Below the pieces are notes generated by a model. It saw only the letters and a program-made list of their open reading frames with translations, was not told where the DNA came from and searched no databases. Below are positions 1,279 to 59,038 of a DNA stretch of 64,000 bases, piece by piece. The DNA comes from Clostridia bacterium (lineage in GTDB: Bacteria; Bacillota; Clostridia; UMGS1883): assembly GCA_017451505.1 (NCBI GenBank), contig JAFTOF010000002.1, positions 1,042 to 65,041 on the forward strand. Direction: 5' to 3'. Both the position numbers and the translations under genes were made by a program. How positions within the stretch are numbered: position 1 is the stretch's first letter; each line of letters opens with the position of its first letter.

Positions 1279-3074
1279 GGTTTTAAGTGTGTCTTGTGAA
1301 TTGTTACCGTACCAACACCCTTATTTACAATTCTGTACTTTCCGAATGCGGCAGGAACAACGATTATATCAAGAGAATTCATATCATAGTATAACTCGGG
1401 GTTATCGATTGATTCAACTCTTACCTTTTCGCCGTCAACAAGTGCAAGAACATGGAAAAGACCGTTTGTTTCGTCGGTAATTTCTTTATCGAAGATAAGG
1501 TTACGAAGTGAGAAGTACAAAAGGTCGTGTTCTCCAACAACGATTTCCTTAAAGCCCTCACCCTCTCTTACAACGCCGCCGTGATTAACAAGATTTTCTT
1601 CTATCCATTCCTTGTCGCGTTCACCGCGAATAACTTCCTTACCCATCTTAAGATGTATGGGACGGGGAACTCCTGTCTGCGGGTCAAGACGCTGATAGTC
1701 ATAAAGCTTATATGTATATGAACCAACTGTAAGAGAGCCAATTTCAAGAATAACCTGATTTCTTCCCGATGCGTGGATTGTACCTGCGGGAATCATAACC
1801 TGTGTCCCCGGTATGGAGTCTACTGCATTTACATACTTTTCATAATCAATAATTTCGTGAGTTTTTTCTGCACGCTCAGCCTCTTCAAAGAACTTTTCAC
1901 AGCTATCCTTTTCATTGAATCCAAGATATGTTTTTGCACCCTGTCCTGCGATAACTACATAATAGCTTTCGTCCTGTCTGCCGAATTCTCCATGATTATT
2001 TACTACATATTCCTCGTGGGGGTGGCACTGAATAGACATATTCCCTGAAGAATGGTATGTATCGTCATAGTTGAATCTGATGGGGAAATATCCGCCGAAC
2101 TCTGTAAATGCACGGTGTCCGAGAAGCTCCTCGCCCATTGCCTGAACAAAGGTAAAGAAGGGTGCTTCAAATTCAAGAGTGTCAAGCTGTGCAACGATAG
2201 AAACCTCGAGAGGAATCATATCAAACACCCACGCACAGTTACGCATTTCTTTTGGAAGATTTCTGAGGCGGTGTACATAATATCCTCCCCAAACGCCCTC
2301 AAGGTATACGGGTCTGCAACGGAAGGGACGAGAGCAAAGTTCTCTGAACAGGTCAAGAACTGCATCAAAGGGGAGCATACTCATTTTTACGGGGTCGTCT
2401 GCTGTGATATAGAAATCGATTTTACGGTTTCTCATCATTTTCCAACGCTGTTCCATCGCCGTTTCAAAGTCAACGTAATAGTTTCTTCTCATCATAAGAG
2501 AATAAGGAAGCTCTTCTGTAAGACCGATGTTTCTGTTTTTACCGTTTTTGCAGTTAAGGACGGCAGTTCTGGGAGTTACATCCATCCATACTCTTACATC
2601 ATATGCGTCCTGAAGCTCTTCCGAAAGGGCACCTTTACCATATACAATAAGCTTCTTTGCCTTTTTGATTTTTTCATTAAGTGCAGCAACCTTTTCTTCG
2701 TCCTGCAAGCCCTTGTAGCCCTCGGTATATCTTCTTCCGTAAAGAAGAACAGGGTCATAATCTCTGTCTTCGGGAAGATAGGGCTTAATCTTTGCCGTAA
2801 TCACTTCAGAGGGAAGCATTACACTGTCGCCATCAATAAACTCAACGCCCTCTGTCGCAAGCTGCTGGCGAAGAACATTAATAAGTGTTTCGTATTCGCT
2901 GCCGGGGTAGGCATCGATACCGATTGTTTTTACTCCATCATCAAACAGAGAAGCAATTTTCTTTCCTACATTTAAAATTCCGTGAACGAGATTCTTCTTA
3001 ACCGACTCAGGAACGTTAACCTTGTTAACTGCATTTGGGTCAGCATAAGGATAGGGATGAAACATAAAGCTCAT
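1275..3074 (-). CDS. Type I phosphomannose-isomerase-like cupin protein with a long N-terminal extension
   Basis: 599-aa ORF. The C-terminal half has PMI/cupin signatures (SIQCHPHEEY, QDESYYVV, IPAGTIHASG). About 270 aa at the N-terminus are of unclear function. Confidence 0.65.
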   Translation of the reverse strand: MSFMFHPYPYADPNAVNKVNVPESVKKNLVHGILNVGKKIASLFDDGVKTIGIDAYPGSEYETLINVLRQQLATEGVEFIDGDSVMLPSEVITAKIKPYLPEDRDYDPVLLYGRRYTEGYKGLQDEEKVAALNEKIKKAKKLIVYGKGALSEELQDAYDVRVWMDVTPRTAVLNCKNGKNRNIGLTEELPYSLMMRRNYYVDFETAMEQRWKMMRNRKIDFYITADDPVKMSMLPFDAVLDLFRELCSRPFRCRPVYLEGVWGGYYVHRLRNLPKEMRNCAWVFDMIPLEVSIVAQLDTLEFEAPFFTFVQAMGEELLGHRAFTEFGGYFPIRFNYDDTYHSSGNMSIQCHPHEEYVVNNHGEFGRQDESYYVVIAGQGAKTYLGFNEKDSCEKFFEEAERAEKTHEIIDYEKYVNAVDSIPGTQVMIPAGTIHASGRNQVILEIGSLTVGSYTYKLYDYQRLDPQTGVPRPIHLKMGKEVIRGERDKEWIEENLVNHGGVVREGEGFKEIVVGEHDLLYFSLRNLIFDKEITDETNGLFHVLALVDGEKVRVESIDNPELYYDMNSLDIIVVPAAFGKYRIVNKGVGTVTIHKTHLKP

Positions 3075-17380: not shown

Positions 17381-17404
17381 TATGGGTGAAGCGGCACGCT
17401 TCTT
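17381..17404 (-). repeat. Short form of the stop-proximal repeat family (hairpin module only)
   Basis: Reverse strand reads AAGAAGCGTGCCGCTTCACCCATA, beginning 1 nt after the TAA of the upstream gene. It is identical over 23 nt to the copy at 43132-43154. Confidence 0.75.
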
Positions 17405-17405
17405 G

Positions 17406-17915
17406 TTAGATCCAGATTTCAAGAATTTTTAACGCTTTGTCATCAACCTTTGTAATATCGGGGATATAGTACCTGTTTCCGTAAACATCGATAAGCATAA
17501 TACGGTTATTCCCCATATTCCGCACGTTACTGCTCATGTCTGTAACGGTAAATTCCCGCACTCCCGCCGTGGTCGTAACCTCCCACATTGTATGCCCGAA
17601 TTCCTCGCTGACCTTTTCTACAGAGGTAATTTCGGGAACAAAGTACCGTTTGGCAAGCTCCCTCTTTACCATTTCCAACTGATTTTCGGGAATTTCCGCC
17701 AGCGACCGTAGGATACCTATTTCTTTTTCCTTATCCTCACGGGAATAATTCTCGCTTTTAATACACAAATATTCCTCCTCATACATAAAAGGGAACATTC
17801 TGAGTACGCTTACCCGTCCTATATCCTCCCCTTTGTACTTGAGGCAAAGAAGACCGCTTTTTGTTTCATAAAACAACGTATCGGAAGGACTGATGAAATC
17901 AAGTATATTTTCCAT
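17406..17915 (-). CDS. DUF1854-like protein (ABC-transporter-associated)
   Basis: 169-aa soluble protein sandwiched between two ABC exporter genes. The family assignment is from memory of this conserved context and was not searched. Confidence 0.55.
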   Translation of the reverse strand: MENILDFISPSDTLFYETKSGLLCLKYKGEDIGRVSVLRMFPFMYEEEYLCIKSENYSREDKEKEIGILRSLAEIPENQLEMVKRELAKRYFVPEITSVEKVSEEFGHTMWEVTTTAGVREFTVTDMSSNVRNMGNNRIMLIDVYGNRYYIPDITKVDDKALKILEIWI

Positions 17916-22614: not shown

Positions 22615-22695
22615 CTCCCCATATTCGTATCATAATACTTTTTTCGACGAAAATCAAGAAAATCCTTTATTTTTAATAGCTTTTGCCTCAAAAAA

Positions 22696-22724
22696 TTGAC
22701 ATATGAATATTTTAGTGATATACT
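22696..22724 (+). promoter_or_regulatory. Consensus-like sigma-A promoter of dapA copy 1
   Basis: TTGACA (22696-22701), a 17-nt spacer, then TATACT (22719-22724). Confidence 0.65.
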
Positions 22725-22785
22725 GAATAAAAATGAATATTGATTGATAGGCATATTGATTGATATGCATAAGGAGGTATGTCAA

Positions 22786-23679
22786 GTGAGAACTAAGTCG
22801 ATTTTTACAGGCTCTTGTTGTGCCATTGTTACTCCATTTGATAAAAACGGAAAAGTAAATTTTGATGCACTTGAAAAATTGGTTGAATTCCAGATTGAAG
22901 GAAAAACCGATGCCATCTGCGTATGCGGAACAACGGGCGAAGCACCCACCCTTGCAGATGACGAACACCTCAAGGTAATAGAATGTGTTGTAAAAAAGGT
23001 TAACGGAAGAATTCCCGTAATCGCAGGAACAGGCTCCAATGACACAAACCATGCTATTATGATGTCGAAAGAGGCAACGGCGCTTGGTGCTGATGCACTC
23101 CTTCTGGTAACTCCTTATTACAATAAAACTACACAAAAGGGGCTTATCAGGCATTACACTGCTATTGCCGATACACTTGAAATCCCCGCTATCTTGTACA
23201 ATGTTCCGGGAAGAACAAGCGTAAACATTGCCCCCTCAACGCTGAAAGCTCTTTGCGATCACCCCAATATTGCCGCTATAAAAGAGGCATCGGGTAATAT
23301 GGCACAGGTTGTTGAAATGATGAGTCTGTGCGGTGATAAAATTGATTTTTATTCGGGAAATGACGATATAAATGTTCCCATTACCGCCATCGGAGGAAAG
23401 GGTGCAATTTCCGTACTTGCAAACATAGCACCCACTAAGACGCATCAGATGCTTCAGCTCGCACTGGACGGCAATATCAAAGAAGCAACAAAACTGCAGT
23501 TTGAAGCGACAGAGCTTATAGGTGCATTGTTCTGCGAGGTAAATCCCATTCCAGTTAAGGAGGGGCTTAATATCTTAGGCTTTGATGTGGGTATCGGGCG
23601 TCTTCCCCTTTGCGAAATGGATAGTTCCAATGCACAAAAACTTCGCACGTGTATGCAAAATTACGGTTTGATAAAATAG
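22786..23679 (+). CDS. dapA: 4-hydroxy-tetrahydrodipicolinate synthase (copy 1)
   Basis: The GTG start at 22786 lies 8 nt after AAGGAGG. DapA motifs are GTTGE, YNVPGRT and IKEASG. Confidence 0.9.
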   Translation: MRTKSIFTGSCCAIVTPFDKNGKVNFDALEKLVEFQIEGKTDAICVCGTTGEAPTLADDEHLKVIECVVKKVNGRIPVIAGTGSNDTNHAIMMSKEATALGADALLLVTPYYNKTTQKGLIRHYTAIADTLEIPAILYNVPGRTSVNIAPSTLKALCDHPNIAAIKEASGNMAQVVEMMSLCGDKIDFYSGNDDINVPITAIGGKGAISVLANIAPTKTHQMLQLALDGNIKEATKLQFEATELIGALFCEVNPIPVKEGLNILGFDVGIGRLPLCEMDSSNAQKLRTCMQNYGLIK

Positions 23680-23757
23680 AAGCGTGTCGCTTCACCCTCG
23701 TCGCGTTCTGGCTAAAATCAAGATTGGAAAATCTTTTTTGCGATTAAATTACGCAAT
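23679..23757 (+). repeat. Stop-proximal repeat family, full copy A
   Basis: GAAGCGTGTCGCTTCACCCTCGTCGCGTTCTGGCTAA...TGCGATTAAATTACGCAA. It starts at the last base of the dapA TAG. Confidence 0.75.
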
Positions 23758-23820
23758 TTCCTGTACGGTAAAACAGCCGAAAACAATCTATTCTTTTCGG
23801 CTCATCAGGTTATAAAAACC

Positions 23821-23858
23821 AAAATCGTGCCGTATAATTAATTATACGGTGCGATTTT
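23821..23858 (+). terminator. 38-nt near-perfect palindrome / hairpin upstream of dapB
   Basis: aaaatcgtgccgtataatt|aattatacggtgcgatttt. The two imperfect positions become G-U wobbles only in + strand RNA. It ends 18 nt before the dapB RBS. Confidence 0.5.
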
Positions 23859-23890
23859 CATATTCAGATTATACTAAAAGGTGGATTCAT

Positions 23891-24652
23891 ATGATAAAGA
23901 TAGCTTTAATAGGTGCAAACGGAAAAATGGGACAGGTTATAAGCAGACTGCTTGAAGGCAGCGAAACTGCACAGGTTTCATTCGGTATCGATATTAATAC
24001 TGTCTGCAACAGCTCTTTTCCTGTATATCCCTCTCTCTCGGATGCAAAAGAGGAATGTGATGTGATTATAGATTTTTCTCACCCGTCAACATTAGAGGCT
24101 ACTCTTAAATATGCTTCAGAGAATAACAAAGCGGCAGTAATTGCAACTACAGGTCTTGCAAACGAACAAATCGAGGCTATTAAGAAAACAGCTGAAAATA
24201 TTCCTCTCTTTTTCAGTGCCAATATGTCTTTGGGCGTAAACCTGCTTATTGAGCTTGCAAAAAAAGCTACAATGCTTCTTGAGGAAAATTTTGATATTGA
24301 AATTATTGAAAAGCACCACAATCAGAAGATTGATGCTCCAAGCGGCACTGCACTATCTATTGCCGATGCAATTAATGAGACAAGTATAAAAGCAAACGAA
24401 TATGTGTATGACAGACATAGCACACGCAAAAAAAGAAGTAGGAATGAAATCGGTATTCACTCACTCCGCGGAGGCACAATAGTGGGTGAACACAGCGTAA
24501 TATTTGCAGGAACAGATGAAATCATCGAGTTAAAGCACACGGCAACAAGCAAAGAGGTTTTCGCTGTCGGTGCAATAAAAGCGGCAGCGTTTCTTATCGG
24601 TAAAAAACCCGGATTATACAACATGGGCAATCTTATAGAAGGGGTATGTTAA
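23891..24652 (+). CDS. dapB: 4-hydroxy-tetrahydrodipicolinate reductase
   Basis: Start MIKIALIGANGKMG (NAD-binding GxxGxxG) after AAAAGGTGG, with EKHHNQKIDAPSGTA. The ORF-track start at 23849 lies inside the hairpin. Confidence 0.9.
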   Translation: MIKIALIGANGKMGQVISRLLEGSETAQVSFGIDINTVCNSSFPVYPSLSDAKEECDVIIDFSHPSTLEATLKYASENNKAAVIATTGLANEQIEAIKKTAENIPLFFSANMSLGVNLLIELAKKATMLLEENFDIEIIEKHHNQKIDAPSGTALSIADAINETSIKANEYVYDRHSTRKKRSRNEIGIHSLRGGTIVGEHSVIFAGTDEIIELKHTATSKEVFAVGAIKAAAFLIGKKPGLYNMGNLIEGVC

Positions 24653-25327: not shown

Positions 25328-25419
25328 GATAGAATTGTATAGAAAAGCTTGGCGAAGATTCATTCTTCGCCAAGCTTTTCTATATAAACAAAAATAATCC
25401 AAAACTTACTATAAAAAAA

Positions 25420-25448
25420 TTGACATATAAATTTATTGGTGCTATAAT
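25420..25448 (+). promoter_or_regulatory. Consensus sigma-A promoter of asd-dapA2
   Basis: TTGACA (25420-25425), a 17-nt spacer, then TATAAT (25443-25448). The upstream A-tract and -35 context (AAAAATTGACATAT.AAT) closely match the dapA copy 1 promoter. Confidence 0.7.
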
Positions 25449-25493: not shown

Positions 25494-26489
25494 ATGAAAA
25501 AACTTAATGTTGCAGTAGTTGGAGCTACAGGTATGGTAGGAAGAACCTTTCTTAAGGTGCTTGAAGAAGAGAACCTCCCTGTAGAAAACTATTATCTCTT
25601 TGCATCTGCACGCAGTGCAGGCTCAAAGGTTGAGTTCATGGGTAAGGAATACACCGTCGAGGAGCTGACTGAAAGCTCTTTTGACAGAGGAATTGATATT
25701 GCTCTTTTCAGTGCAGGCGGTTCAATCAGCGAAAAGTTTGCACCCATTGCTGCAAGCAAGGGATGTATTGTAATCGATAACTCCAGTGCGTGGAGAATGG
25801 ATAAGGAAGTTCCGCTCGTTGTTCCAGAGGTTAATCCCGAGGATATCAAGTGGAACAAGGGTATTATTGCAAACCCCAACTGCTCTACAATTCAGGCTAT
25901 GGTTGCACTTAAACCTCTTGATGACAAGTATAAGATTAAGAGAGTTGTTTATTCAACATATCAGGCAGTTTCAGGTGCAGGTATGGGCGGCTGGAGCGAC
26001 CTTGAAAACGGTCTTAAGGGTGAAGCACCCAAGAAGTTCCCCCACCCCATTGCAAACAACTGTCTTCCTCACATTGATGTATTTCTTCCCAACGGTTACA
26101 CCAAGGAAGAAATGAAGATGGTTAATGAAACAAGAAAGATTTTAGGCAGAGAGGATATCAGAATCACCGCTACGACTGTACGCGTGCCTGTATTCAACAG
26201 CCACAGCGAATCAATCAATGTGGAATTTGAAAAGCCCTTTGACCTTGCTGAGCTTAAGGAAGTTCTCAAGAATGCACCCGGTGTTGTAGTTCAGGACGAC
26301 CCTGAAAACAATGTTTATCCCCTTGCAATCAATGCAACAGGCTCTAACGATACATATATCGGCAGAATTCGCCGTGACGAAAGCGTAGAAAGCGGTGTTA
26401 ACCTTTGGGTTGTTGCCGACAACATCCGTAAGGGTGCTGCTGCAAATGCAGTTCAGATTGCAAAGAAAGTTATTGAGTACATGGACTAA
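25494..26489 (+). CDS. asd: Aspartate-semialdehyde dehydrogenase
   Basis: 331 aa with MKKLNVAVVGATGMVG, active-site NPNCST and YQAVSGAG. Confidence 0.92.
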   Translation: MKKLNVAVVGATGMVGRTFLKVLEEENLPVENYYLFASARSAGSKVEFMGKEYTVEELTESSFDRGIDIALFSAGGSISEKFAPIAASKGCIVIDNSSAWRMDKEVPLVVPEVNPEDIKWNKGIIANPNCSTIQAMVALKPLDDKYKIKRVVYSTYQAVSGAGMGGWSDLENGLKGEAPKKFPHPIANNCLPHIDVFLPNGYTKEEMKMVNETRKILGREDIRITATTVRVPVFNSHSESINVEFEKPFDLAELKEVLKNAPGVVVQDDPENNVYPLAINATGSNDTYIGRIRRDESVESGVNLWVVADNIRKGAAANAVQIAKKVIEYMD

Positions 26490-26504
26490 TTGGAGGTATA
26501 TCAA

Positions 26505-27398
26505 GTGAGAACGAAGTCAATTTTTACAGGCTCTTGTTGTGCCATTGTTACTCCCTTTGATAAAAACGGAAATACAAATTTTGAAGAGCTTAAGAAAATA
26601 GTAGAATTTCAGATTGAAAACAAGACTGATTGTATCTGTGCCTGTGGAACGACGGGCGAAGCTTCTACTTTAAATGACAAAGAGCATCTTGAGGTTATAG
26701 AATTTATTGTTGACACTGTTAACGGAAGAATTCCCGTAATCGCAGGAACAGGTTCTAACGATACAAGACACGGAATCGAGCTTTGTAAGAACGCTTGCAG
26801 CCTTGGTGTAGACGGTCTTTTGATTGTTACCCCCTACTACAATAAAACAAGCCAGAGAGGTCTTATACATAACTACTCTGTTATGGCAGAATGTGTTGAC
26901 AAACCCATTATTCTCTATAATGTTCCCGGAAGAACGGGCTGTAATATCTCTCCCGCAACTCTTAACACCCTTGCAGACCATCCCAATATTGTGGGTATTA
27001 AAGAAGCATCGGGCGATATGTCACAGTTTATTGAAATGATGGCTCTCTGCGGTGACAGACTTGATTTCTATTCAGGTAATGACGACATCAACGTTCCCAT
27101 AATTTCTATGGGCGGTAAAGGTGCTATTTCCGTACTTGCAAACGTTGCTCCCCGTCAGGCACATGATATGGTGCAGTTTGCTTTGGACGGAGATTTCAAA
27201 CAGGCTGCTAAAATGCAGTGTGAAGCACTTGACCTTATCAATTCTCTTTTCTGCGAGGTTAACCCCATTCCCGTTAAAGAGGGCATGAATATCCTTGGTT
27301 TTAATGCAGGTCCTACAAGACTACCTCTTTATGAAATGGCCCCCGAAAACGTGGAGAGACTGAAAAACTCCATGAAAAACTATGGTTTAATTAAATAA
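26505..27398 (+). CDS. dapA: 4-hydroxy-tetrahydrodipicolinate synthase (copy 2)
   Basis: The GTG start at 26505 follows GGAGG, which immediately follows the asd stop. Same DapA motifs as copy 1. Roughly two-thirds amino-acid identity to copy 1 by eye. Confidence 0.9.
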   Translation: MRTKSIFTGSCCAIVTPFDKNGNTNFEELKKIVEFQIENKTDCICACGTTGEASTLNDKEHLEVIEFIVDTVNGRIPVIAGTGSNDTRHGIELCKNACSLGVDGLLIVTPYYNKTSQRGLIHNYSVMAECVDKPIILYNVPGRTGCNISPATLNTLADHPNIVGIKEASGDMSQFIEMMALCGDRLDFYSGNDDINVPIISMGGKGAISVLANVAPRQAHDMVQFALDGDFKQAAKMQCEALDLINSLFCEVNPIPVKEGMNILGFNAGPTRLPLYEMAPENVERLKNSMKNYGLIK

Positions 27399-41773: not shown

Positions 41774-43130
41774 TCTTGACAATGTTGAAATAAACCTTGA
41801 AGACGGTCATAAGTACGCCCGTTTTGACATTAAAGAGGGCGAAAATATTATAAAGTATGGTCAGCCTATCGGACACGCTGTATGTGACATTAAAAAGGGT
41901 GACCATGTACATACTCACAACATGAAAACAAACCTTTCCGGCGAGCTTGAATATACATATGAGCCTGGCGAGGTTAAGCGTGATAAAGTTGCGTCCGACC
42001 TTACCTTTATGGGTTACAGACGCAGTGACGGCAGCGTGGGAATCAGGAACGATGTATGGATTATTCCGACCGTAGGCTGTGTAAATTCACAGGCAAAGGT
42101 TATTGCAGAAAAAACAGGTGCGAAGACATTTACTCACCCCTTTGGTTGTTCACAGCTTGGCGATGACCATGAAACCACACAGCTTGTCCTTAAAGGACTT
42201 ATAAAGCACCCCAATGCAGGCGGTGTTCTTGTACTTGGCCTTGGCTGCGAAAATAATAATATTGACCTTTTCAAAAAGGTTCTTGGCACATGGGATGAAA
42301 GCCATGTGAAATTCCTTAATGCACAGGACGCAAGCGATGAAATTGAGGAAGGAATTGCTATAGTAAAAGAGCTTCAGCAACGTGCGGAAAAAATGCAGCG
42401 TGAGCCCATAAGTATTTCCGAGCTTAAGATAGGTCTTAAATGCGGCGGAAGCGACGGCTACAGCGGAATCACCGCAAACCCCCTTGTGGGAAGGCTTTCC
42501 GACCTGCTTATATCAATGGGCGGAAGCTGTGTTCTTACGGAAGTTCCCGAAATGTTCGGTGCAGAGCATCTTTTGATGAAGCGTTGTAAAAACGAAGAAA
42601 TTTTTGATAAGACAGTTTCTCTCATCAACAACTTCAAGCAGTATTTTATCCGCCACAATCAGGTGGTATATGAAAACCCCTCTCCCGGTAACAAGGCAGG
42701 CGGAATCACAACGCTTGAGGAAAAGTCCCTCGGTTGTGTGCAGAAGGGCGGTTTGTCCGAGGTTGTAGACGTGCTTGACTATGGTGACAAGCTTCAAGAA
42801 AACGGACTTTCACTTCTTAACGGTCCCGGAAATGACATTGTGGCAGTTACAAACCTGACCGCGTGCGGCGTGCATATGATTCTCTTTACAACGGGCAGAG
42901 GTACTCCCCTTGGTGCACCTGTTCCTACAATTAAGATTGCAACAAACCACTCCTTAGCTGAAAGAAAAGCGAACTGGATTGACTTTGATGCAAGCCCCAT
43001 GCTCGACGGAATTGACCCGACACAGGCACTTCTTGACTACTGCATTGAGATTGCAAACGGCAAACAGGCAAAGAATGAAATCAATAAATGCGAGGAAATT
43101 TCCATTTTCAAGGACGGCGTAGTACTTTAA
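41760..43130 (+). CDS. uxaA: Altronate dehydratase
   Basis: 456 aa. SAF-like N-terminus (LDNVEINLEDG...IIKYGQPIGHAVCDIKKGDHVHTHNMKTNL) and a UxaA C-terminal domain. Overlaps uxaB by 14 nt. Confidence 0.85.
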   Translation: MLINNLDNVEINLEDGHKYARFDIKEGENIIKYGQPIGHAVCDIKKGDHVHTHNMKTNLSGELEYTYEPGEVKRDKVASDLTFMGYRRSDGSVGIRNDVWIIPTVGCVNSQAKVIAEKTGAKTFTHPFGCSQLGDDHETTQLVLKGLIKHPNAGGVLVLGLGCENNNIDLFKKVLGTWDESHVKFLNAQDASDEIEEGIAIVKELQQRAEKMQREPISISELKIGLKCGGSDGYSGITANPLVGRLSDLLISMGGSCVLTEVPEMFGAEHLLMKRCKNEEIFDKTVSLINNFKQYFIRHNQVVYENPSPGNKAGGITTLEEKSLGCVQKGGLSEVVDVLDYGDKLQENGLSLLNGPGNDIVAVTNLTACGVHMILFTTGRGTPLGAPVPTIKIATNHSLAERKANWIDFDASPMLDGIDPTQALLDYCIEIANGKQAKNEINKCEEISIFKDGVVL

Positions 43131-43133
43131 AAA

Positions 43134-43210
43134 GAAGCGTGCCGCTTCACCCATTTCGCGTCCTGACTGAATTTAGCATCAATAAATGTTACTCGAGATT
43201 AAATTACAAC
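43134..43210 (+). repeat. Stop-proximal repeat family, full copy B
   Basis: GAAGCGTGCCGCTTCACCCATTTCGCGTCCTGACTGAA...ACTCGAGATTAAATTACAAC. It begins 3 nt after the uxaA TAA. Confidence 0.7.
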
Positions 43211-43228
43211 CAAAACAAAATATATCAT

Positions 43229-43263
43229 TGTAGGGGCGGATAATATCCGCCCCTACAGTTTTC
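43229..43263 (+). terminator. Intrinsic terminator of uxaBA
   Basis: tgtaggggcgga/taata/tccgcccctaca followed by gtttt. Confidence 0.85.
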
Positions 43264-43267
43264 ATTG

Positions 43268-43310
43268 CAAACCAAAACGGAGCAGGAAATTCCTGCTCCG
43301 TTTTGGTTTG
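43268..43310 (-). terminator. Intrinsic terminator of the SLH protein gene
   Basis: caaaccaaaacggagcagg/aaat/tcctgctccgttttggtttg, 8 nt after the stop on the reverse strand. Confidence 0.85.
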
Positions 43311-43317
43311 TATGATA

Positions 43318-45190: not shown

Positions 45191-46786
45191 TTACGCTTTG
45201 TTCTTTGTTATAGCTTTCATAACAAAGAGGAATGCAATTGTAAGCACAATTCCCACAGGAAGAAGAATAAATGCACTCTTGATGAAAGCGGCTAAAACGT
45301 ACATTACAAATGAAATAGCTGCTACACTGATTGCATAGGGCATCTGTGTGGAAACGTGGTTAATGTGGTTACATTCACCGCCTGCGGAGGACATAATCGT
45401 TGTATCGGAAATAGGTGAACAGTGGTCACCGCATACTGCACCTGCAAGGCAGGCAGACATTCCGATTATAAGATTTGCACTTCCAGAGGGGAAAATTGCC
45501 ACAACGATTGGAATGAGGATACCAAATGTTCCCCATGATGTACCTGTTGAGAAAGAAAGGAAGCATGCAACAAGGAATATAATTGCAGGAAGGAAGTTTG
45601 CAAGACCTGCTGCAGCACCCTCCATAAGTCCTGCTACATATGCGTCTGCACCCAGAAGTCCTGTCATATTCTTAAGAGAGGTTGCGAGGGTAAGGATTGT
45701 AATTGCGGGAACCATTGCGACAAATCCCTTGGGAACACAATCCATAGCTTCTTTAAAGGTCATAACACGGCGTGCAACCATGTAAATAATTGTAATAACA
45801 AGAGCGATAAGGCCACCCATGGGAAGACCTATTGTAGCATCTGTATTTGAGAAGGAATCAATAAAGCTTGCACCGTCTAATATTCCGCCTACATATACAA
45901 GTGTAAACACGCAAACTGCGATAAGTACAATTATTGGGAAAAGAAGGTCAATAACCTTACCCTTGGAAGAACCCTGAACCTTCTGACTTTCAGCACGGTC
46001 TCCGCAGGTGTAAAGGTCACCCTTTTCTTTTGCGTTCTTCTCATGAAGTGCCATAGGACCGTAATCAACTTTCATGAGTGTAATAGCTACAACAAACACG
46101 AGAGTGAGAATTGAATAGAAGTTATAAGGAATTGCCTTGATAAAGAGGCTGAGTCCCTGACCTTCGGGAGCAAATTCGGACACTGCCGCTGCCCATGAAG
46201 AAATGGGAGCTATCATACAGATAGGTGCCGCTGTAGCATCAATAAGGTACGAAAGCTTTGCTCTGGAAATTTTGTGTGCATCGGTTACGGGACGCATAAC
46301 GGAGCCTACTGTGAGGCAGTTAAAGTAGTCATCAATGAAGATAAGCACACCGAGAACAAAGGTTGCAAGCATTGCACCTACTCTTGACTTGATGTTTTTC
46401 TTTGCCCATTCACCGAATGCGGCACTGCCGCCTGCCTTGTTCACAAGGGCAACTATCGCACCCAGCACAACAAGGAAAATGAAAATTCCCGCTGTTCCTG
46501 ATACCGCAGCGATAAGACCGTCGTTTACAACGGCATCAATGGTTTTAAGGACATTGAAATTTGCCGCAAAAAGACCGCCCATAAGTATACCTACAAACAA
46601 TGAGCTGTATACTTCCTTTGTAATAAGGGCAAGTCCGATAGCGATAACGGGCGGAACAAGTGACCAGAATGTACCTGCCATTTTACTTGTTACCTCCCCA
46701 TCCTCTGCAAAAGCTGCTAAAGGGCATAGTACGAGCAGCATCAGAACTGTCGTACAGATTGCGAAAAGATTACTTTTTCTTTTCAT
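45191..46786 (-). CDS. Na+/H+ antiporter NhaC family transporter (candidate lysine transporter)
   Basis: 531 aa with about 12 TM helices and NhaC-like sequence throughout. Preceded by a lysine riboswitch. Confidence 0.8.
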   Translation of the reverse strand: MKRKSNLFAICTTVLMLLVLCPLAAFAEDGEVTSKMAGTFWSLVPPVIAIGLALITKEVYSSLFVGILMGGLFAANFNVLKTIDAVVNDGLIAAVSGTAGIFIFLVVLGAIVALVNKAGGSAAFGEWAKKNIKSRVGAMLATFVLGVLIFIDDYFNCLTVGSVMRPVTDAHKISRAKLSYLIDATAAPICMIAPISSWAAAVSEFAPEGQGLSLFIKAIPYNFYSILTLVFVVAITLMKVDYGPMALHEKNAKEKGDLYTCGDRAESQKVQGSSKGKVIDLLFPIIVLIAVCVFTLVYVGGILDGASFIDSFSNTDATIGLPMGGLIALVITIIYMVARRVMTFKEAMDCVPKGFVAMVPAITILTLATSLKNMTGLLGADAYVAGLMEGAAAGLANFLPAIIFLVACFLSFSTGTSWGTFGILIPIVVAIFPSGSANLIIGMSACLAGAVCGDHCSPISDTTIMSSAGGECNHINHVSTQMPYAISVAAISFVMYVLAAFIKSAFILLPVGIVLTIAFLFVMKAITKNKA

Positions 46787-46838: not shown

Positions 46839-46861
46839 TATAATTACACTTTTAGCATAAA

Positions 46862-47022
46862 ATCACGATAGCACTCCACACGTCTGTGACAGTCCGGCAG
46901 ATATTCTCTGACGGCCCAGCATATATGCCTTGGCTGGCAATATACACTTCGGCGGTAATTCCTTTCACTTCTGCCAATATCCATGATGCAAAAGCTACTG
47001 ATAATAACCGCACCTCTACCAA
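46862..47022 (-). promoter_or_regulatory. Lysine riboswitch (L-box / LYS element)
   Basis: Reverse strand reads GGUAGAGGUGCGG...CAGUAGC...GUGAAAGGAAUUACCGCCGAAGUG...GCUGGGCCGUCAGAG...GGACUGUCACAG...UGGAGUGCUAUC. It shares the conserved blocks of the B. subtilis lysC leader as I recall it (AGAGGUGC, AGUA, GAAAGG, CGCCGAAG, CUGG.CCGU, CUGUCA); the 3'-terminal GGAGUGCUAUC matches the general L-box P1 consensus (GGAG.GCUA) rather than my recalled lysC string. Confidence 0.88.
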
Positions 47023-47047
47023 TTTTGTCAATTATTAAGATATTTTT

Positions 47048-53164: not shown

Positions 53165-53434
53165 TTAAATTCTGTGCATTGAATCAAAAACTTTTTTGTT
53201 GCGAACCTGAATTTTCTGACCAAGTTCTTCACCCAAAGCCTTTAATTCATTTACCGTTTGGGCAAATGATATGTTGGAATTTTTCATATCCACTATCATC
53301 ACCATTAAAAACTGATTTTCATATGTAGTTTGTGAAATATCAATTATATTAATTTCATTTTTGGCAAGAAGTTCACTTACCTTTGCTATGATACCCACGC
53401 TGTCCTTACCCATAACCGTTATAACCGATTTCAA
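53165..53434 (-). CDS. ACT domain-containing protein (UPF0237)
   Basis: 89 aa, MKSVITVMGKDSVGIIAKVSELLA. This is the conserved partner gene upstream of the UPF0210 gene. Confidence 0.8.
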   Translation of the reverse strand: MKSVITVMGKDSVGIIAKVSELLAKNEINIIDISQTTYENQFLMVMIVDMKNSNISFAQTVNELKALGEELGQKIQVRNKKVFDSMHRI

Positions 53435-53449
53435 AAGTATTCCCCCTTA

Positions 53450-53492
53450 AAAATAAAACCATGCAGCTATTATAACACCACATGGTTTTTAT
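53450..53492 (-). terminator. Intrinsic terminator of abrB
   Basis: Reverse strand reads AAAACCATG-(17 nt)-CATGGTTTT followed by ATTTTT. Confidence 0.6.
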
Positions 53493-53498
53493 TTCAAG

Positions 53499-53753
53499 TC
53501 AAATTACAGTTTTTTTAATGTCATCTATACAATTGCCGCAAACATTCTTTCCCTGATATACGAAGATGTTTTCTTTAGCCCCGCAGAAAATGCAGGTCGG
53601 ATTGTATTTTCTTAAAATAATATTCTCTCCCTCGACGTAAATTTCAAGAGGGTCACGAATTGCAATATCCAAAGTACGCCTCAGTTCAATGGGAAGCACT
53701 ATTCTTCCAAGCTCATCAACTTTTCTGACAATACCTGTCTCTTTCATAGCCAT
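53499..53753 (-). CDS. abrB: AbrB family transition-state regulator (clostridial type with CxxC...CxxC tail)
   Basis: 84 aa: MAMKETGIVRKVDELGRIVLPIELRRTLDIAIRDPLEIYVEG, then CIFCG...CGNC. Confidence 0.88.
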   Translation of the reverse strand: MAMKETGIVRKVDELGRIVLPIELRRTLDIAIRDPLEIYVEGENIILRKYNPTCIFCGAKENIFVYQGKNVCGNCIDDIKKTVI

Positions 53754-58385: not shown

Positions 58386-58919
58386 ATGAAATTTGAAGGA
58401 ACAAAAACCGAAAAAAATCTTCTTGCCGCATTTGCAGGTGAATCACAGGCAAGAAACAAGTACACTTATTTTGCATCAGTTGCAAAAAAAGAAGGCTACC
58501 AGCAGATAGCCGCAATCTTTGAAGAAACTGCAAATAACGAAAAAGAGCATGCAAAGCTTTGGTTCAAGGCTCTTGAGCTTCTCGGCGGCACAAAGGAAAA
58601 CCTCCTTGCAGCAGCAGAGGGCGAAAACTACGAATGGACAGATATGTATAAGACCTTTGCGGAAGAAGCTGAGGAAGAAGGCTTCACAGCTCTTGCAGCA
58701 CAGTTCAGAGCCGTTGCCGCAATCGAAAAGACACACGAGGAAAGATATCGTGCACTTCTCAGCAATGTGGAAATGCAGAAGGTATTTGAAAAGGCAGAGG
58801 AAGCAATCTGGGAATGCAGAAACTGCGGTCACCTTGTAATGGGTAAAAAGGCTCCTCAGGTTTGCCCCGTATGTGCTCATCCTCAGGCATATTTTGAAAT
58901 CAGAAAAGAAAATTATTAA
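58386..58919 (+). CDS. rbr: Rubrerythrin
   Basis: 177 aa with diiron ferritin-like motifs (E..A...Y, EKEHAK, EKTHEE) and a C-terminal rubredoxin-like CRNCG...CPVC. Confidence 0.92.
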
Positions 58920-58997
58920 GGCGTGCCGCTTCAGCCTCGTCGCGTACCGACTAAGGCTAAAGTTTGACAAAAGCTACTCGCGATTAAATCACGCAAA
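58918..58997 (+). repeat. Stop-proximal repeat family, full copy C
   Basis: AAGGCGTGCCGCTTCAGCCTCGTCGCGTACCGACTAAGG...ACTCGCGATTAAATCACGCAA. It starts within the rbr TAA. Confidence 0.75.
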
Positions 58998-59009
58998 TTT
59001 TTATATGAT

Positions 59010-59038
59010 AAAAAACGGCTCAATATGAGCCGTTTTTT
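59010..59038. terminator. Bidirectional intrinsic terminator
   Basis: aaaaaacggctc/aatat/gagccgtttttt. Confidence 0.85.

Follow-up and report, generated by a model that had tools for sequence, protein, structure and literature searches.

Bacterial MITEs (miniature transposable elements with inverted repeats), such as Correia, RUP, bcr1 and ERIC, are non-coding intergenic repeats of ~100 nt that occur in many copies, are present or absent between relatives, duplicate their target site, rely on an enzyme encoded elsewhere and are often co-transcribed with their neighbours. The pneumococcal interspersed repeat SPRITE is strongly enriched near the 3' ends of genes; it consists of an 18-bp duplex and a long U-rich tract, and the element is itself a terminator (PMC3049150). 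A 64,000-nt stretch of a Clostridia bacterium genome (contig JAFTOF010000002.1, positions 1,042 to 65,041; hereafter the window) carries four copies of a repeat that shares features with both. As in MITEs, the repeat is small, non-coding, multicopy, present or absent between relatives and flanked by a target duplication of fixed length (modal 8 nt). Unlike MITEs, it has no terminal inverted repeats, its orientation is fixed beside a terminator stem, and its highest conservation lies in a hairpin at one end. Like SPRITE, it is interspersed in Firmicutes, has no fold built from terminal inverted repeats, is similar to an intrinsic terminator and lies at gene 3' ends, but this resemblance (a stem plus a U-rich tract at gene 3' ends) is functional only. 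The two sequences are dissimilar, a 6-bp hairpin with its T-run forms just one end of an ~88-nt unit that lies beside a separate terminator, and the tandem arrays and 8-nt flanking repeats found here are features that we have not seen reported for SPRITE.

The best explanation, to which we assign a probability of roughly three in four, is that each repeat is a copy of a mobile element, small, non-coding and non-autonomous, that inserts in the A-rich tract at the foot of a terminator hairpin. Each unit comprises ~88 nt plus a duplicated 8-nt A-rich target (YAAAAAAG), and the consensus reads, in order, (T/C)AAAAAAG; AAGCG-TGC-CGCTTC; ACCCAT(G/T); TCGCG; ~35 variable nt; CGCGA; TAAAATT; ACGCAAATTCCTATA-CGGT; and (T)AAAAAAG. 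The GAAGCG/CGCTTC hairpin (P1) is followed by ACCCA, and TCGCG pairs with CGCGA in a 5-bp long-range stem (P2). The element is apparently undescribed: a terminator-homing miniature element without inverted repeats and with a structured core. Literature searches with the hairpin sequence and for terminator-targeting small repeats found no description of it, SPRITE being the nearest analogue. In the window the element has no Rfam match at the gathering threshold, permissive Rfam scans of the uxaA copy and of a three-unit array returned sub-threshold noise, the plasmid and phage collections contain no match, and a scan of viral contigs for P1 gave only chance matches in GC-rich coding DNA. The copies in the window and the sites they adjoin are as follows.

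17384–17402, minus strand: short form, P1 and ACCC only, between the stop codon of the DUF1854 gene (17406–17408) and the ribosome-binding site (RBS) of the next, ABC-transporter gene.
23672–23774, plus strand: dapA copy, full unit; its left repeat TAAAATAG (23672–23679) contains the dapA stop codon TAG.
Parts of the dapA copy, plus strand: P1 23679–23693, ACCC 23694–23697, P2 arms 23701–23705 and 23739–23743, tail 23751–23769.
23769–23776, plus strand: right repeat TAAAACAG of the dapA copy.
23775–23802, plus strand: hairpin AGCCGAAAA..TTTTCGGCT adjoining the tail of the dapA copy.
43134–43148, plus strand: P1 of the uxaA copy, GAAGCG-TGC-CGCTTC, preceded by an A-run (43129–43133); the TAA at 43128–43130 is the uxaA stop codon.
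43149–43198, plus strand: middle of the uxaA copy, with the ACCCAT linker, the P2 5' arm TCGCG (43156–43160), the variable centre and a degenerate P2 3' arm CGAGA (43194–43198).
43199–43226, plus strand: decayed tail region of the uxaA copy, in which the profile match stops at 43207.
43227–43259, plus strand: terminator hairpin abutted by the uxaA copy.
43266–43312: second terminator past the uxaA copy.
53456–53469, plus strand: unoccupied target site CCCCCTTA^AAAATAAAACC, followed by a hairpin; two tandem units lie at the orthologous site in locus L125.
58918–59015, plus strand: rubrerythrin copy, with a mutated P1 (58918–58932) that overlaps the stop codon TAA (58917–58919) and is followed by AGCC.
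Parts of the rubrerythrin copy, plus strand: P2 arms 58940–58944 and 58979–58983, tail 58991–59009, A-run 59010–59015.
59016–59038, plus strand: bidirectional terminator CGGCTCA-ATA-TGAGCCG with a T-run, abutted by the rubrerythrin copy.

An initial annotation of the window had proposed these copies as one repeat family, and the family is real. The 5' module GAAGCGTGYCGCTTCASCC matches four times (17384–17402, minus strand; 23679–23697, 43134–43152 and 58918–58936, plus strand) against 0.01 matches expected, and none of 100 shuffles of the window sequence reached four. The three long copies align: a repeat finder gives 73% identity over 79 nt for the dapA and uxaA copies and 79–85% identity among all three over the first 34 nt. 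A profile built from aligned family members recovers them with E-values of 1e-22 (23673–23773), 8e-19 (43129–43207) and 1e-19 (58919–59014), and the short form with 3e-5. The upstream genes had been named correctly and have unrelated functions, encoding a DHDPS (dapA) protein, altronate dehydratase, rubrerythrin and a DUF1854 protein, and the failure to place the family among riboswitches, attC sites or REPs also held. Other parts of the annotation needed revision. The units extend beyond the ~78 nt first proposed, through ACGCAAATTCCTATAcggt and an A-run to ~23773 and 59014. Of the four-part architecture the 5' module stands, but the 3' end of the uxaA copy is degenerate, covering profile positions 3–81 only, and the hairpin of the rubrerythrin copy is mutated (AAGGCG). 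The 3' motif taken by itself is not significant, with six matches against 2.07 expected at three mismatches and three of 100 shuffles also reaching six. A site-specific miniature insertion element had been the last of three candidates offered for the family; it is now supported by presence and absence in relatives, by 8-nt direct repeats and by arrays of mixed subfamilies.

First, occupied and empty forms of the same site occur among relatives. The window is ~88–91% identical to loci of the genome JAZQAB, and presence and absence of the element at the same site is seen in five comparisons. The initial annotation had suggested comparing orthologous intergenic regions that lack a copy, and each of the three full window copies is indeed missing at the orthologous site in close relatives. 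The rubrerythrin site is empty in L127, where the protein is identical and the DNA 90% identical; there, TAAAAAAC... comes after the stop codon and leads into the same terminator hairpin. Relatives L128, L129 and L130 (altronate dehydratase 86–91% identical) lack the element at the uxaA site, and in each of them TAA leads into an A-run and then a terminator hairpin. The dapA–dapB spacer is long (211 nt) where the element is present, as in the window and L141 of JAZQAB, and short (77–86 nt) where it is lacking, as in L142 and the outgroups L143 and L144. At the fourth locus compared, window positions 53456–53469, the window itself is empty and its ortholog L125 holds two units. At two sites, rubrerythrin and 53.46 kb, the empty allele has the hairpin as well, which therefore predates the element there. 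The dapA insertion is older than the split between the window's species and that of L141, because the copies of both have a private tail variant, CCTGTACGG; between these two copies the centres differ by ~17%, P1 at 1 of 19 positions and the tail at 0 of 30. The short form is likewise kept at the orthologous locus L053.

Second, the units are flanked by direct repeats. When the 9 nt before P1 are compared with the sequence following the tail, the mean best match is 6.82, against 6.51 +/- 0.075 for flanks shuffled between copies, and none of 2000 shuffles scored as high. The exact flanking repeat is modal at 8 nt: repeats of at least 8 nt occur in 25 units against 11.6 expected (maximum 20 in 500 shuffles), whereas those of at least 9 nt are not enriched (5 observed, 3.7 expected). 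Several repeats depart from the A-run consensus, namely TAACAAAG (L113), TTAGAAAG (on both sides of unit 1 in L125), ATTAAAAAG (L042) and GCACAAAAAA (L030), together with TAAAATAG/TAAAACAG at the dapA copy. Because the two flanks correlate beyond the A-run, as in GCACAAAAAA, TTAGAAAG and TAACAAAG, the repeats point to a real target duplication.

Third, the family forms arrays that mix subfamilies. When one genome per species was scanned for the 5' module, at least 120 loci were returned, of which ~70 come from uncultured Clostridia/Oscillospiraceae; these are the genuine ones, from genomes assembled from ruminant and other animal guts, and the remaining loci listed are chance matches in GC-rich coding DNA. 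The profile identifies at least 86 full units in 69 arrays, drawn from ~15 uncultured Clostridia/Oscillospiraceae genomes and several metagenomes. A separate metagenome scan (P1 plus ACCCAA) added members of the same architecture, mostly of another subtype. Fifteen arrays hold two or three head-to-tail units with a period of 92–97 nt, and units of different subfamilies stand side by side in L058, L096, L108 and L125, so the arrays were not made by local duplication. Instead, the A-run and P1 together recreate the target, which accounts for head-to-tail arrays of mixed subfamilies. In L125, where unit 1 has its own repeat TTAGAAAG on both sides, that unit was inserted in the A-tract just upstream of resident unit 2. 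A CRISPR-like or TIGR-like array was considered and dropped, because a few subfamilies account for the apparent spacers and the arrays lie scattered. Integron attC sites are likewise structured (60–140 nt), follow gene 3' ends in one orientation, have conserved ends and a variable paired centre, and occur in arrays. They differ in that their R''/R' core sites (RYYYAAC/GTTRRRY) are absent from the consensus here, the element has an A-rich flank duplication, and attC sites sit in one cassette array next to intI, whereas the copies here are scattered after housekeeping genes (6–20 kb apart for the four in the window).

The initial annotation had further held that every copy lies in the sense orientation of the gene it follows. 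This is true of the window, where all four copies are sense to the upstream gene, start 0–3 nt past its stop codon or overlap it, and, in the case of each long copy, have a terminator hairpin on their 3' side. It is not a general rule. In the 69 arrays, for which gene context was called with a crude open reading frame (ORF) picker, the upstream gene is co-oriented in only 34 of 50 cases (p = 0.015), while 16 of 50 arrays face the start of the upstream gene, and the downstream gene lies on the opposite strand in 41 of 51 (p = 1.5e-5). Where both neighbours were called (n = 47), 19 arrays are convergent, 18 antisense to both genes, 8 sense to both and 2 divergent. The rule that replaces it concerns the terminator. 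A hairpin of -12 kcal/mol or lower lies within 58 nt past the tail in 56 of 64 arrays but upstream in 4 of 64 (Fisher p = 3e-22), compared with 19% of random 58-mers, and mean folding energies are -19.8 kcal/mol for the downstream 58 nt and -5.3 kcal/mol for the upstream 56 nt. Many of these downstream hairpins are bidirectional terminators whose A-run pairs with the T-run; one such terminator, in L106, has a unit on each of its two A-tracts, arranged tail-to-tail. The independent metagenome copies L131–L140 obey the same rule. The orientation of the element is thus locked to the terminator, not to the gene. In 30 of the 69 arrays, no more than 25 nt separate the beginning of the profile match from a co-oriented stop codon, and agreement with the upstream gene is weaker than the terminator rule. 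The frequent place of copies behind stop codons follows from the layout of these genomes, where TAA is often the point at which a terminator's A-tract starts.

Bacterial class C group II introns likewise target intrinsic terminators (a stem-loop plus T-run), relative to which their orientation is fixed, and the element may be likened to them in this respect. They are, however, ribozymes of ~0.7–2 kb, usually with a reverse-transcriptase ORF and without target duplication, whereas the present unit is ~88 nt long, has no hit among the Rfam intron models and lies between duplicated flanks.

These positions bear directly on the role that the initial annotation preferred, namely a cis-acting RNA of the 3' untranslated region (3'UTR) or intercistronic spacer, selected for a host function such as transcript stabilisation or docking of a protein or small RNA (sRNA), with its spread being secondary. 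The four sense copies of the window, the 34 co-oriented arrays and the 30 arrays close to a stop codon would be expected of such an RNA, as would a short form kept in two species and orthologous dapA copies whose centres have diverged but in which P1, both P2 arms and the tail are retained. Adjacency to the stop is a by-product, however, and the grounds of orientation and stop codon do not generalise: 18 of 47 arrays are antisense to both neighbours, 16 of 50 face the start of the upstream gene, the same genes lack the element in close relatives, the arrays contain two or three units of mixed subfamilies, and the upstream genes are functionally unrelated. We therefore regard a selected 3'UTR RNA as quite improbable, and a secondary RNA role for those copies that lie in 3'UTRs is conceivable but required by nothing in the data. 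A stop-codon recoding signal (SECIS-like or PYLIS-like) was also dropped, the stops being TAA or TAG and relatives lacking the element.

The conserved core does not decide between RNA and DNA. P1 is paired in 99% of cells and P2 in 94%, compared with 10–56% when the partner columns are slid, and conservation of both stems with compensatory changes is what a selected RNA would also show. The covarying pairs for which the initial annotation had recommended a search are found in P2, as TCGCA/TGCGA, TCTCA/CGAGT and TTGCA/TGCAA; G-C is replaced by A-T in 15 distinct units and by T-A in one (L050), and C-G by T-A in another (L091). Other lineages have TCGGG/CCCGA (L063) or CCGCG/CGCGG (the GC-rich JAZRVE), and in L083 and L093 P2 has shrunk to a short capped hairpin directly after ACCCAT. 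Mismatches in P1 and P2 comprise ~9–10 top-strand G.T pairs and ~8 A.C or C.A pairs, the latter being G.T on the other strand. With no clear strand asymmetry, the data single out neither the folding strand nor RNA over DNA, and the absence of a preference for the mRNA strand counts against the 3'UTR role. Conservation of P1 is inflated because the loci were fetched by an exact P1 match; in the only 10 units that escape this bias, P1 plus ACCC has an identity to the consensus of 0.93, the P2 arms of 0.86–0.92, the tail of 0.85 and the centre of 0.58. At the far end, 4 nt are variable (CGGT, AGGT, AATT, CAGT) and are inherited within subfamilies. No terminal inverted repeats were found in any register tried, the consensus ends AAGCGTGCCGC... 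and ...TTCCTATACGG not being complementary, and in the repeat scan P1 was the sole inverted repeat inside units. A small ORF inside the unit is ruled out by frame-breaking indels of 1–6 nt between copies, and the idea that P1 and ACCC form a tRNA-like minihelix was dropped as speculative. In the type A centres, two segments ~17 nt apart seemed to covary as a direct repeat (GAC..GAC, TAC..TAC, AAC..AAC, TGG..TGG; for example L008 5526–5626, L037 1455–1552, L079 2227–2327 and window 23706–23730), but the pattern was seen by eye and is inconsistent across copies, and it was set aside.

On the opposite strand, P1 and its T-run were flagged as terminator-like in every unit examined; at the uxaA copy this minus-strand signal is GAAGCGGCACGCTTC plus TTTTT. 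It is conceivable that the units are opposite-strand small RNA genes or pure spare terminators, selected to stop antisense or read-through transcription into the neighbour, as proposed for SPRITE. That repeat offers a published precedent for a terminator-like interspersed repeat at gene 3' ends (PMC3049150), and in 41 of 51 arrays the units lie just beyond the terminator of a downstream gene on the opposite strand. Yet the P1 stem is a mere 6 bp long, P1 lacks an adjoining T-run in the GC-rich lineage, no sRNA promoter was found, and the conserved P2 stem, ACCCA and tail are left unexplained. A terminator function may be a consequence of the element but not its way of spreading, and as a full explanation it has little probability.

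A SINE-like retroposon (SINE, short interspersed nuclear element) is a further reading, which we consider unlikely rather than negligible. A bottom-strand small RNA would end at its own terminator (P1 plus U-tract), the U-tract would anneal to a nicked A-tract at the foot of another terminator, and a reverse transcriptase recognising the P1-ACCCA-P2 end would copy the RNA by target-primed reverse transcription, with a staggered second nick yielding the flanking repeat. Direct flanking repeats without terminal inverted repeats would follow, and the junction A-run|GAAGCG is the one expected from A-run priming on a ...CGCUUCUUUUUU-3' RNA. Shortened copies mostly keep P1 and lose the tail (window 17384–17402, L053, L073, L027, L137 and two in L139; only one solo tail was found, in L029), which fits incomplete reverse transcription, and the far-end 4 nt vary. 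Families with different bodies have the same P1 end (L063, L084, L092 and the JAZRVE lineage), as SINEs have the 3' tail of their LINE (long interspersed nuclear element). Nevertheless, no reverse transcriptase lies near the copies in the 8-kb stretches searched, no promoter for such an RNA is evident, the variable 4 nt are inherited within subfamilies, the shortened copies could be ordinary internal deletions (L036, L117), and the sharp 8-nt mode resembles a fixed transposase stagger and not the variable repeats of target priming. Eukaryotic SINEs are comparable in lacking terminal inverted repeats and in having direct repeats, a homopolymer-rich target or junction, shortened copies that keep one end and families with a common terminal stem-loop; the likeness is an analogy and no evidence, and the bacterial host, the fixed repeat of ~8 nt and the lack of an internal promoter set the present element apart. 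To our knowledge, no SINE-like element of this kind has been described in bacteria.

Single-strand DNA transposition offers another route. Repetitive extragenic palindromes (REPs and their mosaic BIMEs, associated with RAYT transposases) are similarly hairpin-based extragenic units that lie after genes or between convergent genes, singly or in clusters, with a lineage-conserved hairpin. REPs are 20–40 nt long, usually in inverted pairs, with a 5' GTAG-type motif and no target duplication, whereas the present units are ~88 nt long, run head to tail, have A-rich flanking repeats and are preceded at P1 by an A-run instead of GTAG. An element derived from IS200/IS605 (a PATE) would be expected to have similar subterminal hairpins and no duplication; here P1 and the GCG..CGC hairpin (P3) are unlike, and the repeats extend beyond the A-run. 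In an IS200/IS605 or REP/RAYT-type mechanism, a Y1 HUH transposase would recognise the hairpins, cleave at a short sequence beside them and insert the element in one orientation 3' of the T-run without true duplication. The hairpins, the lack of terminal inverted repeats, the strictly oriented insertion beside a short motif and the tandem arrays are consistent with this. The bottom-strand geometry also resembles the ends of IS608, with a cleavage site, ~15 nt and the P3 hairpin at one end and P1 plus a 6–7-nt T-run at the other, and a protein that recognises a hairpin would fit the way in which the P1 sequence itself is conserved across lineages. Flank repeats beyond the A-run (GCACAAAAAA, TTAGAAAG, TAACAAAG) nonetheless indicate a real target duplication, foreign to IS200/IS605, whose ends also carry similar hairpins; the GTAG-type signature is absent, and no tnpA or RAYT gene was found near the copies in the 8-kb stretches. 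Such a mechanism is very unlikely.

Several observations weigh against a terminator-targeting mobile element as the explanation. No partner enzyme was found: when 848 ORFs from 74 loci, within 8 kb of copies, were clustered, no transposase appeared among the recurrent families, which were host genes (SLH-domain surface proteins, a histidine kinase, AraC regulators and an amidohydrolase), and no RAYT, tnpA or reverse transcriptase was seen near copies. Nor were any long elements bounded by P1 and the tail found. The lack of terminal inverted repeats is unusual for a cut-and-paste element with a fixed 8-bp duplication, and a selected RNA would likewise be compatible with the conserved structure and with the 30 of 69 arrays that lie in sense next to a stop codon. 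About one fifth of copies have no matching flank repeat, and the A-rich flanks are of low complexity, which leaves the repeat statistics significant but modest. At the dapA site, the empty allele L142 lacks the adjacent hairpin (23775–23802) as well as the element, which needs either two successive events or co-mobilisation of the hairpin. The crude gene calls and the inflated conservation of P1 are further limits. As to the kind of enzyme, a DNA transposase or recombinase that cuts with a fixed 8-bp stagger is the one favoured by the sharp 8-nt mode.

If the repeats are such a terminator-targeting element, its life cycle may be outlined as follows. A trans-acting enzyme encoded elsewhere would recognise the conserved core of P1, ACCCA and P2, and integration would involve a cut staggered by ~8 nt within the A-tract (on the other strand, the T-tract) beside the stem of an intrinsic terminator, with the polarity of the target and not the gene setting the orientation. 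Once inserted, the left repeat and P1 would present a fresh A-tract and hairpin, and later copies, often of other subfamilies, could land just upstream. Read on the opposite strand, P1 and the T-run resemble an intrinsic terminator, and the element would thus bring a spare one with it. Copies inserted at TAA A-tracts would join the 3'UTR of the upstream gene.

The 5' end of the unit has a wider distribution than the unit itself. A 19–22-nt module (P1 plus ACCC) heads repeats with different bodies in L084, Neglectibacter (L063), a Clostridium sp. (L092/L134) and a 57% GC Eubacteriales genome. In L084 (~2500–2720, minus strand), from Gastranaerophilales (Melainabacteria), at least four tandem units of 63–64 nt follow directly after the stop codon of a gyrB-like gene, with an identical P1 hairpin and ACCC start and a different body; the module is therefore shared across phyla. 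The P1-ACCCA-P2 module may be the handle of an unrecognised terminator-homing mobilisation system, of which a SINE-like retroposon is the extreme form, a proposal that we rate as a long shot worth stating. Its occurrence in Oscillospiraceae, GC-rich Eubacteriales and Gastranaerophilales would mean horizontal spread of the partner enzyme.

In the JAZRVE genome (L016, L035, L083, L115 and L122; 55–59% GC), a GC-rich version of the family has P1 and ACCCAT followed by a CCGCG..CGCGG stem, has no A-run and places P1 straight after a GC hairpin. Mini-units of 39 nt there consist of P1, ACCCATAC and a GC hairpin. Several JAZRVE copies adjoin a longer repeat that includes an ORF for the tRNA-like peptide motif GGFEPPT and that may be the flank of an rRNA or tRNA operon. 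A second repeated hairpin, GGATGTAAAAA..loop..TTTTTACATCC, is present in L012 (3576–3608), L113 (5917–5942) and L120 (142–171), with variants in L059, L106 and L080. It is the terminator-like hairpin beside the element in several genomes and may be a palindromic repeat family of its own.

Some features of the window adjoin these sites. At the dapA site, 135 nt (23770–23905, against 1380–1515 of L141) are 100% identical from the element tail through two hairpins to the dapB start codon, alongside a dapA coding sequence that differs by 9% between the window and JAZQAB; recent recombination might have produced this identity, or the stretch might be a dapB leader under strong constraint. One hairpin in this region (~23826–23858) shows compensatory changes in L142. 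Two dapA (DHDPS) paralogues (22744–23679 and 26490–27398) lie 3.7 kb apart with 70–79% DNA identity, and a near-identical 33-nt promoter-like sequence, AAAAAATTGACATAT..., at 22690–22722 and 25414–25446 precedes the first dapA and the gene at 25494, respectively. The lysine-pathway cluster (dapA, dapB and, in relatives, asd) appears partly duplicated. The only Rfam match in the window is a lysine riboswitch (RF00168, 109 bits) at 46861–47026 on the minus strand, upstream of the minus-strand gene 45191–46786. The hairpins at 43227–43259 and 43266–43312 are strong back-to-back terminators between uxaA (plus strand) and a convergent gene (minus strand) for a 565-amino-acid SLH-domain surface protein; synteny sought through homologues of this gene (L008, L076, L116) led to sites that are not orthologous. 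The unoccupied target site is flanked by a MazE/AbrB-type antitoxin-like gene (53499–53753) and an ACT-domain gene (53165–53434), both on the minus strand, and in L125 the two units lie between the terminator of the first gene and the RBS of the second, antisense to both.

Should a terminator-targeting element be the correct explanation, intrinsic terminators would be safe landing sites, at which the element rebuilds both a terminator and its own target on landing. This would explain its tolerance at high copy number directly behind housekeeping genes. Each unit would add ~95 nt to many 3'UTRs, placing a conserved hairpin at the stop codon and terminators on the opposite strand, and could shape the expression of many genes in abundant uncultured Clostridia of the rumen and gut. 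The combination of a flank duplication without inverted repeats, a structured, covarying core and an end hairpin that otherwise unrelated repeat families of different phyla have in common points to an enzyme that is not obvious from known insertion sequence families; if the module heads a SINE-like system instead, an RNA ending at its own terminator would be copied into the A-tracts of other terminators. The family is usable as a marker for strain typing; in these metagenome-assembled genomes it also breaks assemblies and leads to errors of annotation.

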